DNA of 64,000 bases. Origin: Candidatus Portnoybacteria bacterium (lineage in GTDB: Bacteria > Patescibacteriota > Minisyncoccia > Portnoybacterales > GWB1-42-6). Below are positions 35,578 to 39,912 of this stretch, piece after piece. The stretch spans positions 9,062-73,061 of the forward strand of contig JACQXN010000020.1 of NCBI GenBank assembly GCA_016208745.1, given 5' to 3'. The translations under genes and the position numbers were made by a program. The notes below the pieces were generated by a model, which was given only the letters and a program-made list of their open reading frames with translations, was not told where the DNA came from and searched no databases. Positions within the stretch are counted from its first letter, which is position 1. The number at the start of each line of letters is the position of its first letter.

Positions 35578-37695
35578 TTATACGTTCTCATAATTTCTAA
35601 CGAGGTCCACCGCTTCATTCAGCATCTGGATATATAGATTAAGCCCCACGGCGTTGATTTGGCCTGATTGTTCGCGGCCCAAGATATTGCCTGCCCCGCG
35701 GATTTCCAAATCGCGCAGAGCGATTTGATAGCCAGAACCAAGCGCTTGCGCTTCTTTTAGCGCGTCTAATCTTTGTTGCGCAATGTCGGTCAGATTTTTT
35801 TCATTATACAAAAAATAGGCATAGGCCTGTTTATCAGAGCGCCCAATTCTGCCTCGCAATTGATAGCTTTGGGCCAGGCCAAGTTTTGTCGCGTTTGCAA
35901 CAATTAGAGTATTAACATTGGGAAAATCCAAGCCGTTTTCAATAATTGTTGTGGCCACTAGAATATCAATCTTTTTTTCGCCAAAATCATCCATCACTTT
36001 TATCAATTGTTTTTCGTTCATGCGGCCGTGAGCAATAGCAATATAAATTTTCCCCCCCTCCTTTTTAAAGCCTGCCTGTCCGGTAGGCAGGGAGGGGTGG
36101 GGTGGATTTTTTGAATTATCTCCATCCGTAGAATAAATCCCTCCCAGCCTCCCTTTAAAAAGGGAGGAGTTTTTTAGTAATTTCTCAATCTGCTTCTTTG
36201 CCAGTTCAATTGTTTCAATCCGATTATGCAGATAATAAATTTGTCCGCCTCGCTTTAATTCAAATTCAATCGCTTTTTTAATTGTTTTTGGTGAATAGGG
36301 TTCAATAAATGTTTTAACTGCCAATCGGCCGGGCGGCGCGGTTTGAATTAAACTGATATCGCGCAAGCCGGTTAAAGATAAATGCATTGTTCTTGGGATA
36401 GGCGTGGCGCTCAAACTTAAAATATCTATGTTGGCGCGCATTTCTTTAAATCGCTCTTTTTGTTTAACGCCAAATCTTTGTTCCTCATCTATTATAACTA
36501 GTCCAAGACTTGGAAACTCTACGTCTTTTTGAATGAGACGATGGGTGCCAATAACAATATCAGTCTGGCTGTCTTTAATTTGTTTTATGGTTTGAGCCTG
36601 ATTCTTTTTTGATTCCAATCTTGAAAGCAGCGCGATATTAATTGGAAATTTTTTAAGCCGGTTTAAAAAATTATGATAATGCTGGTGGGCTAAAATGGTT
36701 GTTGGCGTGATTAAAGCTACCTGTTTGCCAGCAGTTACTGCTTTAAAAGCCGCGCGCAAAGCGATCTCTGTTTTGCCAAAACCAACATCCCCGCAAATTA
36801 ATCTGTCCATTGGTTTTTCCGATTCCATATCTTTTTTAACGTCTCTCATAGCAGACAATTGATCTTCGGTTTCAATATATAAAAAAGAATCTTCCAGCTC
36901 TTTTTGCAAAGCGTCATCTGGCGGAAATTTAAAACCAGAAACTGCTGCGCGCTTGGCATAAATCTCCAATAATTCTTTAGCCAGATTCAAGGCGCTTTCT
37001 TTGATTTTTCTTTTGGTTTTATACCAGAGCGTTCCGCCAAGGCGATGCACAATCGGCGTTTCAAAGCCAATGTATCTGGTTAATTTTTCTTCCAGTTCAA
37101 GCGGCACATAAAGCCGGTCATTTTTGGCGTATTCTAAAACGAAATATTTTTCTTGACTCTCGGGCGTCGGCGAGTTAAAAGAAAGCTCGCCACCTAGTTC
37201 TTTGGCAAAGCCCTTAAAAATGCCAATGCCATGGTCCAGATGAACCAGATATTCATTCGGTTTTAAATTTGCCAGAAGTTGCGAAGGCGCTTGTTTTTTA
37301 AGGGCTTTCTTGATTGTTTCTGGCTTTTCGTCGATTTTAATTTCAAGAGAAAAAATTTCAGCCAGCTCATTGCCGGAAAATTCAAGGCGCAAGGCCGAAT
37401 CCATATTTATCGGAAAAATATCTAAGATCCCGCCGCGTTGGGAGAGCTCGCCGGGTCTAGCCAATGTTTGCACGCGCTCATAACCAAAATTAGTCAGTTT
37501 TCTTAATAGCTCAAATAGATTTATTCTCTGATTTTTTTCTAAAAAGATCGTATTATCCTTCCACCAGATCTGGGTTTTAGCTACTTCTTCTATTTTTTTT
37601 TGGTTTTCGGAGAACCAAAAGATATCCCGATCTAGGAAATACGGCGACAAGCTTGCAATTAGAATTTTAGTTGGATTTTTACTTTCTGATATCAT
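35578..37695 (-). CDS. mfd: Transcription-repair coupling factor Mfd, compact 705-aa form, carrying an in-frame palindromic-repeat insertion
   Basis: UvrB-homology region (ARPGELSQRGGILDIFP), SF2 helicase motifs (GDVGFGKTEIALRA, DEEQRFGV) and the TRG motif. The insertion ...KGRLGGIYSTDGDNSKNPPHPSLPTGQAGFKKEGG... is encoded by a CCTCC-family element at about 36050-36172. Confidence 0.8.
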   Translation of the reverse strand: MISESKNPTKILIASLSPYFLDRDIFWFSENQKKIEEVAKTQIWWKDNTIFLEKNQRINLFELLRKLTNFGYERVQTLARPGELSQRGGILDIFPINMDSALRLEFSGNELAEIFSLEIKIDEKPETIKKALKKQAPSQLLANLKPNEYLVHLDHGIGIFKGFAKELGGELSFNSPTPESQEKYFVLEYAKNDRLYVPLELEEKLTRYIGFETPIVHRLGGTLWYKTKRKIKESALNLAKELLEIYAKRAAVSGFKFPPDDALQKELEDSFLYIETEDQLSAMRDVKKDMESEKPMDRLICGDVGFGKTEIALRAAFKAVTAGKQVALITPTTILAHQHYHNFLNRLKKFPINIALLSRLESKKNQAQTIKQIKDSQTDIVIGTHRLIQKDVEFPSLGLVIIDEEQRFGVKQKERFKEMRANIDILSLSATPIPRTMHLSLTGLRDISLIQTAPPGRLAVKTFIEPYSPKTIKKAIEFELKRGGQIYYLHNRIETIELAKKQIEKLLKNSSLFKGRLGGIYSTDGDNSKNPPHPSLPTGQAGFKKEGGKIYIAIAHGRMNEKQLIKVMDDFGEKKIDILVATTIIENGLDFPNVNTLIVANATKLGLAQSYQLRGRIGRSDKQAYAYFLYNEKNLTDIAQQRLDALKEAQALGSGYQIALRDLEIRGAGNILGREQSGQINAVGLNLYIQMLNEAVDLVRNYENV

Positions 37696-38134
37696 AGCGA
37701 AAGGGATATCTTTTCAGAAGGGGCGACGGGGAAACTGGGTGTTTCCCCGTGGTGGAAATATTAAAACCGCAAGGTTTTAAGGAGTGAGCCTAAAAAGGCG
37801 AACGACAAAATATCCCGCTCTAAAAAATAGGGGGTAAGGCTGGCAATTAAAATTTTTTCTTTTTCACTTGACAAGCCCATTAAACCAGATAATAATAACC
37901 TATTCTGGATAAATGGTCAAAAAGCATCCGAATAGCGCAAAATTCTACACGAATGCGTCCATACGAATAAAAATTCTTTCTACCATCCTATCTGTGAGTG
38001 GCCAAAGCCAAAGTTAACCCTCCTAAACTTTGGTGAGTAACCTCAAGTATCAAGGGCGAATCCTTTTGGAATCTGCTCTTGTCACTCGCAGGTAGGATGG
38101 TGGATGGGATTAAGTTCTTTTAAAAAGGAGAAGT

Positions 38135-38344
38135 TTGATGAGCAAAATTTTTAAGCATTTCTCTGCATTCGGGCTATTTTTGCTTCTGTGTTTAGGAAGT
38201 TACTCGTTTTCGGATCTAATCCAAGCAATAATAGGAATAGTTGTTGGACTTTTCTTGACTTTTTGTTTTTTACCTTCCGGGTATTTGATAAAAAAGGGTT
38301 CTTCATGTGGGGGAGAGAAGCTCTTAAAAAAAGGAGAATTCTGA
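38135..38344 (+). CDS. Small membrane protein of 69 aa with 2 TM
   Basis: RBS AAGGAG 8 nt upstream; hydrophobic. It shares the leader AAGTTCTTT(T)AAAAAGGAG with the downstream cassette ORFs. Confidence 0.45.
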   Translation: MMSKIFKHFSAFGLFLLLCLGSYSFSDLIQAIIGIVVGLFLTFCFLPSGYLIKKGSSCGGEKLLKKGEF

Positions 38345-38757
38345 TGGGTTTTAAAATTTTTGGAGCGATCTCTATTGTCATCGGATTATTGCTGGTATGG
38401 TATTGGTGTGCGAATCGCGAAGCGATAAAGGGGGGTTCGTCAATGAATTCGTTTTTATTTTTAAGCAGTCCTCTGCTGGCCATAATAGCCGGGATTATTT
38501 TTATTGTCTCCTCGCCATCGTATTGGTTAAACTTGTTTGCTGCGAACAATTTAAAGAGTGGCAGTGTGACGCTTGGCGAAGCTATGAGCGCTACACTATT
38601 CTTTGCCACGTCGGTATTTTTAGCAGGATCGCTTTTCTGCGTGGTCTGGAAACGGATTTTCAAAGAAGACAGAAGAAGATTCGCGGTTATCGTTGGGTCG
38701 TCTACCTTCTTTGCTGTTACGATTATTCTCTGGCTGAAATATTTTAAGGTGTTTTGA
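38344..38757 (+). CDS. Small membrane protein of 138 aa with about 4 TM
   Basis: The start overlaps the upstream stop (TGATG), which suggests translational coupling. RBS AAGGAG is present. It is the same frame as track ORF 38188..38757. Confidence 0.5.
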   Translation: MGFKIFGAISIVIGLLLVWYWCANREAIKGGSSMNSFLFLSSPLLAIIAGIIFIVSSPSYWLNLFAANNLKSGSVTLGEAMSATLFFATSVFLAGSLFCVVWKRIFKEDRRRFAVIVGSSTFFAVTIILWLKYFKVF

Positions 38758-38813
38758 CCAATTGGTGGGCAAGGATGGTGGATGGGACTAAGTTCTTTAA
38801 AAAGGAGGTTTGT

Positions 38814-39053
38814 ATGAGGCCGGAAGCATATTCTGTACTCGCTACTATAGCTGTTTGGGCCGTAATTTTAATCTTTATGTATATTTTTCGCCCCATGGCT
38901 TTTTGGTGTTTGCGTGGATTATTAGAGCAGAGGGAATTGGAAGACGCCGTAAATGCAGTGCAGGTATTTTCATTAGTAACCCTACACGCCGTTTTTTTCT
39001 TAACGTTGATCGGTATAGGGGTATATTATCAAATACTAATACAGGTTAATTAA
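38814..39053 (+). CDS. Small membrane protein of 79 aa
   Basis: The ATG at 38814 is preceded by the duplicated leader GGATGGTGGATGGGACTAAGTTCTTTAAAAAGGAGG. The product is hydrophobic. Confidence 0.45.
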   Translation: MRPEAYSVLATIAVWAVILIFMYIFRPMAFWCLRGLLEQRELEDAVNAVQVFSLVTLHAVFFLTLIGIGVYYQILIQVN

Positions 39054-39100
39054 ACCGATTCGCGGTTTAATTAAAAACAAGTTCTTTATAAGGAGGAAAT

Positions 39101-39328
39101 ATGAAGCTAGCAGTGAGTGGCGGTATACAATCGGTTGGCGGTAAAATTATGGGAGATTCTTTTGATATAATCCCGGACGATCCCATGGCTCCTGTAGTTC
39201 TCTATTTGCACCCGGGCGAACATCTAGAGGTGGCTTATGAGCTTGACGGAAGAGGGGCAAAGAAATGCATTTTTATTGATGAGAATAGCAATCTTGTAAT
39301 GGCAAATAAATTTCCCGGCCAAGATTAA
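39101..39328 (+). CDS. Small soluble protein of 75 aa
   Basis: RBS TAAGGAGG is present. It has GG-containing N-terminus MKLAVSGGIQSVGGK. No family assignment. Confidence 0.4.
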   Translation: MKLAVSGGIQSVGGKIMGDSFDIIPDDPMAPVVLYLHPGEHLEVAYELDGRGAKKCIFIDENSNLVMANKFPGQD

Positions 39329-39912
39329 TTAAATCGATTCATCGCGGATTCAATGCCGCTTTCGCATGCCGTCTCAATCGCTTGAGCGGCTTTTTTTATT
39401 GTTTCTTGAACCGCCGGTATTTCCTCTTTTGAAAAATTTTTGAGAACGAATTTTTCAAGCGATGTAATTTTTTGCATTATAGTTGAAATGAAAGTTTTTC
39501 CAATAGGATGGATACCAAGACGGAAGCGGATAAATTCTTTATTGCCAAGAGCCTCAATAATTGATTTAACGCCATTATGGCCGCCGCCAGAAGAATTTTT
39601 ACTGATTCTAATGAGTCCCAAAGGCAAATCAAAATCATCATGGATTATCCAAATATCTTCTGGCTGCGTTCTGTAAAAATCAGCTAATTCTTTGACTGCG
39701 GAACCAGAAAGATTCATAAAAGTCTGGGGTTTGGCTAGAATGATTTGCTCGCCTTTTATCTGGCCTTCGGCGATTTGAGATTTGTCTTTTTCCCGCCAAC
39801 CAGAAAATCCGCCCAGATTTTTCTGGATATAATCTAGAGCCATAAAACCAAAATTATGGCGCGTCCTTTCGTATTTTTGGCCCGGATTGCCAAGACCGAA
39901 GATAATTTTCAT
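39325..39912 (-). CDS. pth: Peptidyl-tRNA hydrolase
   Basis: N-terminus MKIIFGLGNPGQKYERTRHNFGF and the HNG region GGGHNGVKS. Confidence 0.9.
   Translation of the reverse strand: MKIIFGLGNPGQKYERTRHNFGFMALDYIQKNLGGFSGWREKDKSQIAEGQIKGEQIILAKPQTFMNLSGSAVKELADFYRTQPEDIWIIHDDFDLPLGLIRISKNSSGGGHNGVKSIIEALGNKEFIRFRLGIHPIGKTFISTIMQKITSLEKFVLKNFSKEEIPAVQETIKKAAQAIETACESGIESAMNRFN

Follow-up and report, generated by a model that had tools for sequence, protein, structure and literature searches.

The described bacterial RNAs closest to the element considered here are the trans-acting small RNAs (sRNAs) RsaE and RoxS of Firmicutes, which act through C-rich loops that bind Shine-Dalgarno (SD) sequences; the dual-function RNAs RNAIII/hld of Staphylococcus aureus and SR1/SR1P of Bacillus subtilis, in which a structured RNA and a small-protein open reading frame (ORF) belong to the same transcript; 6S RNA; and the fluoride/crcB and guanidine/SugE riboswitch leaders. 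Almost no regulatory RNAs have been described in the Patescibacteria (Candidate Phyla Radiation, CPR), the ultra-small, uncultured bacteria with tiny genomes that make up a large share of bacterial diversity. We report here on a locus from this lineage, contained in a stretch of 64,000 nucleotides from a metagenome-assembled Candidatus Portnoybacteria genome (GenBank assembly GCA_016208745.1, contig JACQXN010000020.1, positions 9,062 to 73,061 of the forward strand), which we call the window and number from its first nucleotide. An initial annotation, made from the sequence without database searches, had described an island on the + strand between mfd and pth, both on the - strand, as a cassette of four small, mostly membrane proteins with duplicated translation-initiation leaders and a long structured 5' leader.

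We find that the leader is indeed a structured RNA upstream of the four ORFs, but that it is not specific to this cassette, since elsewhere it precedes unrelated genes or nothing at all. It is a member of a previously uncatalogued structured RNA family of Patescibacteria, which we call RNA B. Going by comparative sequence evidence, we consider it probable (roughly 0.62) that RNA B is a stand-alone, strongly transcribed small RNA gene of about 130-160 nt, and that the ORFs are lineage-specific orphans lying behind it.

RNA B, a structured RNA family of Patescibacteria

The starting point was an alignment of the mfd-upstream region of the window with those of its two nearest relatives found via pth, namely L003, which also belongs to Portnoybacteria, and L004. 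A long hairpin is shared by these three loci and maintained through compensatory changes. From the three sequences we built a covariance model (R1) and ran it on loci gathered by a metagenome scan for an invariant 17-mer, together with genome loci anchored on pth; it returned 41 strong matches scoring 60-182 bits, and a second model, R2, built from a trimmed set of 20 sequences, recovered 6 more. The RNA B family comprises about 38 distinct patescibacterial loci, the other matches to the 17-mer being chance occurrences rather than RNA B. Among 15 genome loci chosen solely for encoding pth, 8 contain it; a scan of seven pth loci belonging to Saccharibacteria and other Patescibacteria did not find it. 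In the window, R1 scores 151 bits on the + strand versus 34 bits on the - strand, and R2 scores 110.6 bits; no further copies are present in the window, where the remaining covariance-model matches have E values of 0.002 or above and are not significant.

The structure is strongly supported by covariation. In an alignment of 32 sequences, 93% of the cells are paired and 42 of the 53 base pairs show compensatory changes, as against a pairing of only 32-46% when the partners in the same alignment are slid by 1-3 columns as a control. Several positions in the closing stem, P1, hold conserved G.U pairs (for example, UG in 27, 23 and 28 of the 32 sequences). Furthermore, a sigma-70-like promoter with a match of at least 10 of 12 positions is found on the same strand, at most 130 nt upstream of RNA B, in 29 of 33 loci. 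The G.U pairs, the higher model score on the + strand and the upstream promoters together lead us to place RNA B on the + strand of the window, antisense to both pth and mfd.

In the window, RNA B occupies approximately positions 37967-38123 (core 37979-38104) on the + strand. It is preceded by a sigma-70-type promoter at 37868-37896 (+), with TTGACA at 37868-37873, a 17-nt spacer and AATAAT at 37891-37896; this matches the consensus at 11 of 12 positions and bears out the good promoter that had been seen here at the outset. The predicted transcription start lies near 37903, and the transcript would begin with a lineage-variable 5' extension (37903-37966, +), in which folding predicts two small hairpins and which holds a GUCAAA motif at about 37916-37921. 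The closing stem P1 (approximately 37972-38001 paired with 38083-38111, +) is about 27-30 bp long and has an invariant core. In the family consensus it opens into a three-way junction, in which 0 nt separate P1 from P2 on the 5' side. The P2 stem is broken by a GAAA/GAGUA internal loop, which we take to be the sequence signature of the sarcin-ricin/loop-E motif, and is capped by the hairpin loop AACCCUCCUAA (38016-38026, +), which is nearly invariant across the family in the form AAUCCCUCCUAA. The third hairpin, P3 (approximately 38050-38082, +), is variable.

The fold of positions 37900-38140 has a free energy of -85 kcal/mol (z = -6.9), a stability reached by 0 of 200 shuffled sequences. The long-range pairing described in the initial annotation is hence real and beyond chance, and its 3' arm was correctly located at 38083-38103; the 5' arm, however, lies at 37980-38000, 21 nt away from the 38001-38021 first assigned to it. 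The inner hairpin CCAAAGTT-AACCCTCCTAA-ACTTTGG (38008-38033, +) is located within this pairing.

Three observations concern variation around the core. The sequence YTATTCT follows the -10 box directly, around the predicted start, in most loci (37897-37905 in the window). The motif GTCAAA (GUCAAA in the RNA) recurs 0-60 nt upstream of P1 in many loci. Finally, in a subgroup of the family P2 and P3 are separated by an additional hairpin of about 40-50 nt, which gives a four-way junction in place of the three-way one; it is seen in L054 (1546-1747), L084 (2295-2493), L023 (524-725) and L041 (3921-4090), and also in L101, L102, L109 and L110.

RNA B does not correspond to a catalogued family. A scan of the whole window with Rfam 15 at the gathering threshold returned tRNA-Leu only; in the region 37600-39400, with E values up to 10, it returned just noise of at most 18 bits, and 16 other RNA B loci gave no match at the position of the RNA. 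The riboswitch that the initial annotation had suggested looking for in this way was thus not found. No prior description of RNA B, or of the mfd leader discussed below, was found in a search of the full-text literature, the coverage of which was incomplete. A mobile or phage origin of RNA B or of the mfd element was considered and discarded, with no true matches in viral contigs: the conserved 17-mer matched only two of these, and neither is a member of the family.

We also considered and rejected several further features of the RNA itself. A leader peptide in the 5' arm of P1, suggested by an ATG after GGAGG in L003, L079 and L074, lacks conservation: at this point neither the window nor L004 has a start codon, and the covariation is that of an RNA. 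Likewise, a pseudoknot of the 5' GGAGG with the CCUCC loop is not conserved across the loci, and the loop is complementary to the downstream SD of its own locus beyond GGAGG in three loci only.

Genomic setting of RNA B and the ORFs behind it

The gene pth lies downstream of RNA B and convergent with it in 29 of 32 loci, at a distance of 4-1678 nt; upstream, a divergent mfd is present in 21 of 32, most of the others being short contigs. RNA B thus appears to be held at a fixed place between the two genes, both of which are on the other strand. From RNA B to the 3' end of pth there is a hypervariable spacer, which in the window contains the four orphan ORFs. Across the 32 loci, the first ORF after RNA B encodes a membrane protein in 17, a lipoprotein-like protein in 3 and a soluble protein in 3, while 9 loci have none; the downstream ORFs fall into several apparently unrelated sequence types. 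In some of the ORF-less loci pth follows at 4-34 nt, and others have a terminator hairpin directly after RNA B; terminator hairpins or U-runs follow the RNA in ORF-less loci. All of these loci retain the full RNA B sequence and a strong promoter. As sequence, structure and promoter are kept with or without anything downstream, RNA B is best regarded as an autonomous gene: it has its own promoter and is present independently of flanking coding genes, as expected of a stand-alone sRNA gene.

The same loci bear on the alternative of cis regulation, in which RNA B would be a 5' leader (for instance a riboswitch, a thermosensor or a protein-binding operator) whose loop masks the SD of genes for small membrane or secreted proteins, and the ORF-less copies would be remnants. 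We consider this unlikely, although it is the best-surviving of the rival explanations. Its conserved, covarying structure is what a leader would have, and a same-strand ORF indeed lies within about 120 nt of RNA B in 23 of the 32 loci, 20 of these being membrane or lipoprotein-like. Moreover, no terminator was detected between RNA B and ORF1 in the window, and the loop is complementary to GGAGG, with a match of 8-10 nt in L077, L079 and L021. However, such extended complementarity is inconsistent across the loci, and the minimum-free-energy fold of the window's copy does not pair the P2 loop with the SD. A leader should also occupy a constant place before a coherent set of genes, with an expression platform; RNA B does not show this pattern, its downstream proteins being mutually unrelated, with no common ligand or pathway logic, and the 9 ORF-less loci keeping it whole along with its strong promoter. 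Lastly, an invariant P1 stem of some 27-30 bp is unusual in a riboswitch aptamer.

In the window, the four ORFs and their overlap were as originally reported, except that ORF1 most likely starts at the ATG at 38138 rather than at the in-frame TTG at 38135, because a GGAG lies 8 nt upstream of the former. ORF1 (38138-38344, +) thus encodes 68 aa with 2 predicted membrane segments; ORF2 (38344-38757, +; locus tag HY764_03425 in the NCBI annotation) 137 aa with 4 such segments; ORF3 (38814-39053, +) 79 aa, or 92 aa if counted from the ATG at 38775, with 2; and ORF4 (39101-39328, +; HY764_03430) 75 aa of a soluble, acidic protein. The description of the products as mostly membrane proteins therefore holds for three of the four, as judged from hydropathy. 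The stop of ORF1 and the start of ORF2 overlap by one base in TGATG, ORF4 overlaps the stop of the convergent pth by 4 nt, and a GGAG or GGAGG is found 5-8 nt before the ATG in all four cases. No terminator was detected in the window between RNA B and ORF1-ORF4; hence, read-through from the RNA B promoter is likely to transcribe the ORFs, each of which would then be translated from its own strong SD, with ORF1 and ORF2 coupled by their overlap. The sole terminator-like site on the + strand of the cassette, a 5-bp stem with a T-run at 38476-38502, inside ORF2, is probably fortuitous, 2.3 such sites being expected and 1 found.

All four products appear to be species-specific orphans, with no convincing homologue anywhere in the searches made. 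In keeping with the initial failure to recognize a family, Pfam, NCBIfam, PHROGs and PADLOC gave only sub-threshold noise. Among the matches listed from a search of 5.8 billion proteins, ORF2, ORF3 and ORF4 recovered only themselves, and tblastn of the ORFs against 117 related loci gave nothing below an E value of 0.05. ORF1 and ORF3 form singleton clusters that are called in Logan assemblies only and have no NCBI annotation. Judged by codon score, ORF4 (0.35) resembles a real gene, the long genes scoring 0.28 +/- 0.07, whereas ORF3 (0.16) is borderline and ORF1 (-0.12) and ORF2 (0.03) are uninformative. An exhaustive HMMER search with ORF4 found a weak, repeat-summed similarity to MucBP-repeat adhesins (whole-protein E values of 4e-8 to 5e-6; best pairwise E value 7e-5), but the Pfam MucBP model PF06458 does not match it at E values up to 1, and we do not count it as a MucBP protein. 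Its single-sequence AlphaFold model is all-beta with a pLDDT of 58, too low for a fold search. A resemblance by eye between ORF4 and the second ORF of L074 received no support from BLASTP, and the idea that ORF4 is the antisense of a duplicated pth fragment was dropped, no similarity being found.

The repeats of the cassette throw light on how the ORFs might have arrived. In the first leader copy (38094-38142, +), the outer 3' arm of P1 is followed by an A/U-rich spacer, the SD and the beginning of ORF1; the second (38772-38818, +), before ORF3, duplicates the 3' tail of RNA B along with the SD and ATGAG. The two copies, of about 49 nt, are roughly 92% identical over a stretch that takes in the SD and the five initial bases of coding sequence. 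All four ORFs have the core AAGYTCTT..AAGGAG in front of them, in shorter versions at ORF2 (38318-38346, a copy missed in the initial annotation) and at ORF4, where a repeat search and pairwise alignment locate it as AAGTTCTTTATAAGGAGGAAAT (39079-39100, +). Allowing up to 3 mismatches, the leader motif matches 5 times in the window, 3 of these being here, before ORF1-ORF3, against 0.58 expected. The duplicated leaders are accordingly real and near-identical, but they are not a conserved control device: the duplicate of the RNA B tail was found in this genome only and in none of the other RNA B loci compared.

The perfect palindrome reported between ORF3 and ORF4 likewise exists, 5 nt away from the 39041-39069 first given. 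The repeat search places TTAATTAAACCG-ATTCG-CGGTTTAATTAA at 39043-39074, with the palindrome itself at 39046-39074 and no strand assigned. The left part of this sequence is a remnant copy of the pth 3' end; read on the reverse strand, 39046-39066 encodes ..ANRFN*, where the real pth has ..AMNRFN* (39325-39345). The true pth 3' end (39322-39354, likewise given without strand) is the second copy of a direct repeat flanking the ORF4 segment. A copy of about 49 nt of the RNA B 3' tail with its ribosome-binding site thus flanks the ORF1-ORF2 segment, and a copy of about 30 nt of the pth 3' end the ORF4 segment. Given a duplicated leader unique to this genome and a relic of the pth C-terminus, the ORF1-ORF2 and ORF4 segments may each have been added with a duplication at the junction, and the repeats look like scars of ORF addition rather than a conserved regulatory device. 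An origin of the ORFs by tandem duplication and divergence was considered and rejected: the inter-repeat segments have no nucleotide or protein similarity to each other, nor any to pth, which argues against such a simple scheme, and the similarity of ORF1 to ORF2 reaches a z of only about 3.

Elsewhere, some of the downstream small ORFs are conserved between related lineages, as in L004 and L030 or in the group of L020, L067, L051 and L056, which indicates that real small genes do occur in the spacer between RNA B and pth. In addition, L074 and L079 have an ORF for a soluble protein that in L021 (approximately 2040-2150, -) runs into an in-frame stop after 7 codons, with the identical sequence in L034, L073 and L086; this suggests that genes also decay in the variable spacer.

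Both observations enter into the next alternative, namely that the four ORFs, or some of them, are not genes and that the 1.2-kb spacer is fast-evolving non-coding or decaying DNA, with RNA B alone being functional. The interrupted ORF of L021 is an instance of such decay, and the orphan status of all four ORFs, codon scores of ORF1 and ORF2 no better than those of an alternative frame, and an NCBI annotation confined to ORF2 and ORF4 would fit it as well. On balance we regard it as improbable, as the small ORFs conserved between other lineages are comparable, and here four consecutive ORFs tile 1.2 kb on one strand, with canonical SD sequences at ideal spacing and one start/stop overlap, hydrophobic segments of the length of a membrane helix and, in ORF4, a codon usage typical of real genes.

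The toxin/immunity, holin-like or double-glycine bacteriocin module proposed in the initial annotation is very improbable: the small hydrophobic products, the coupled ORFs and the GG at residues 7-8 and 13-14 of ORF4 are in its favor, but none of the four databases named above gave a match, among the genes directly next to the cassette, to which this screen was confined, there is none for a C39 peptidase/ABC transporter, a lysin or an antisense RNA, the ORFs are conserved in no relative whereas addiction and bacteriocin modules usually have recognizable ones, and positions -4, -7 and -12 of ORF4 are S, G and L, off the pattern of hydrophobic residues at these positions that we take to be the double-glycine leader consensus. 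Nor do the individual classes fit. Type I toxins are small hydrophobic proteins, usually of less than 60 aa, with an overlapping or adjacent antisense RNA; the present ORFs encode 68-137 aa and have no relatives, and the - strand promoter-like sites in the cassette are weak (9 of 12 positions; 7 found, against 4.5 +/- 2.2 in shuffled sequences). For a class II bacteriocin, ORF4 has no bacteriocin or leader match in Pfam or NCBIfam and no adjoining exporter gene, and for a holin there is no significant match in PHROGs or Pfam.

Certain points weigh against a stand-alone RNA B gene followed by orphan ORFs. The family was gathered by an exact 17-mer and from loci anchored on pth, so that its distribution and its association with pth may be biased. 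The ends of RNA B, the read-through and the translation of the ORFs are predictions from sequence. An ORF close behind RNA B in 23 of 32 loci, 20 of these encoding membrane or secreted proteins, makes a cis-regulatory role possible. The poor codon scores of ORF1 and ORF2 and the lack of an NCBI annotation for ORF1 and ORF3 mean that some of the ORFs may not be genes. Finally, the origin of the repeats as insertion scars is inferred, no close relative showing the state before insertion having been found.

As to what a stand-alone RNA B might do, its loop CCCUCCU is invariant, exposed and identical to the anti-Shine-Dalgarno core. We tentatively suggest that it could pair with the SD of mRNAs, be they those of the downstream ORFs or of distant targets. 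This is the most speculative part of our proposal: complementarity of the loop goes beyond GGAGG in few loci only, which makes SD-binding a guess. The S-turn and the long, G.U-containing P1 might serve as protein-binding or RNase III processing sites. A broader and more doubtful conjecture is that RNA B is a lineage-wide, housekeeping-type regulator, acting as an anti-SD mimic or decoy or as part of a ribonucleoprotein, and that the spacer behind it is a nursery in which genes for small membrane proteins are born, tried and lost. It is prompted by the strong, constitutive promoter of RNA B and the frequent lack of a terminator. If true, the four orphan ORFs with their fresh duplication scars would be a snapshot of this process.

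In our opinion, the most valuable outcome is the patescibacterial RNA family itself, which is uncatalogued, supported by covariation and fixed in its synteny, and which makes a ready entry for RNA family databases. With so few regulatory RNAs described in this lineage, its promoter, covariation and synteny make RNA B a good candidate for a core regulator. The understanding of the locus is corrected as well, in that the repeats and ORFs are lineage-specific additions behind a conserved RNA rather than a peptide toxin or bacteriocin module. Further, the variable spacer offers a tractable place to study the origin of orphan small membrane proteins in reduced genomes.

The leader in front of mfd and the flanking genes

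The immediate neighbors of the cassette are pth, mfd and other housekeeping genes, and both flanking genes are confirmed as first identified: mfd at 35578-37695 (-) on the left and pth at 39325-39912 (-) on the right. The Mfd of the window has 705 aa and those of its relatives 658-686 aa. The Escherichia coli protein has about 1150 aa. The window Mfd presumably lacks most of the N-terminal UvrB-homology module.

A conserved leader in front of mfd is found in the window (37617-37880, -) and in nine other lineages (L004, L020, L021, L030, L037, L041, L042, L089 and L112). It begins with an upstream ORF (uORF) of 39 codons (37880-37761, -), the first part of which duplicates mfd codons 10-28 (KILIASLTPYFLERDILSF versus KILIASLSPYFLDRDIFWF). 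Between the uORF and the true mfd start is an element of about 100 nt that is 91-96% identical among genomes whose Pth proteins are 50-58% identical to that of the window. In 17 other lineages, including L003 and L079, the whole insertion is missing and mfd has a single uninterrupted 5' end. The upstream copy varies between lineages mainly at codon positions 1 and 3, a pattern that argues for its being translated.

A 12-nt segment shortly before the mfd start (37703-37714) can pair with either of two partners. One is mfd codons 24-27 (37617-37628); over 10 lineages this helix is 96.6% paired, and compensatory changes occur at 3 of its 12 pairs, some of them accompanying an Asp-to-Asn change in the protein. 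The other is the corresponding stretch of uORF codons, in a helix of 10 bp that is 94% paired and contains G.U pairs possible only in RNA of the mfd sense. The mfd leader looks like a translation-coupled RNA switch made from a duplicate of the gene's own N-terminal codons. If confirmed, the reuse of such a duplicate as the arm of an RNA switch would be an unusual regulatory design.

A promoter-like site directed toward mfd (37892-37920, -; TTGACC, a 17-nt spacer and TATTAT, matching at 10 of 12 positions) stands back to back with the RNA B promoter (37868-37896, +), the two having a common A/T-rich -10 region. This arrangement would put the ATG of the uORF (37880) about 5 nt from the transcription start and give a nearly leaderless mRNA. 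In L112 (approximately 155-585) and L030 (approximately 1401-1807), a further insertion of about 115-120 nt, similar in both, is seen in the loop of the first hairpin of the mfd leader (alignment A7, columns 180-293), and may be a nested small element.

Two independent Logan assemblies of this organism, SRR12113404 and SRR12113398, break exactly at window position 37924, where L001 and L002 begin. This point is some 20 nt inside the RNA B transcript and just past the duplication in the mfd leader. A heterogeneous population, or difficulty in assembling repeats around the 5' region of mfd, might account for the break. The two contigs are identical to the window, and leave no population variation to analyze.

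Comparison with known RNA systems

The riboswitch leaders of crcB (fluoride) and SugE (guanidine) resemble RNA B in being structured RNAs that precede genes for small membrane proteins at many loci. In contrast to these, RNA B is followed by unrelated orphans, persists where there is no gene, and has no Rfam match. 6S RNA offers a resemblance of another kind, being conserved across lineages, with a strong sigma-70 promoter, a size of 130-200 nt and 5' and 3' ends that pair in a long closing stem. However, RNA B has no central bubble; its 5' strand passes from P1 directly to P2, making a Y-shaped junction rather than a rod, and no Rfam 6S model matches in the window region or in 16 other loci, so that we do not assign it to the 6S family.

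The dual-function RNAs RNAIII/hld and SR1/SR1P share with RNA B the combination of a structured RNA and small-protein ORFs on one transcript, as predicted here. The ORFs of RNA B, however, lie downstream of the RNA rather than inside it, and are lineage-specific and absent in 9 of 32 loci.

With the sRNAs RsaE and RoxS, RNA B has in common its own strong promoter, a compact structure, conservation beyond one genus and an invariant unpaired C-rich motif, here CCCUCCU, able to pair with GGAGG. It has no sequence or model match to them (Rfam, E values up to 5-10), and differs from them in its closing stem of about 30 bp, its three-way (in some lineages four-way) junction and its S-turn-like internal loop.

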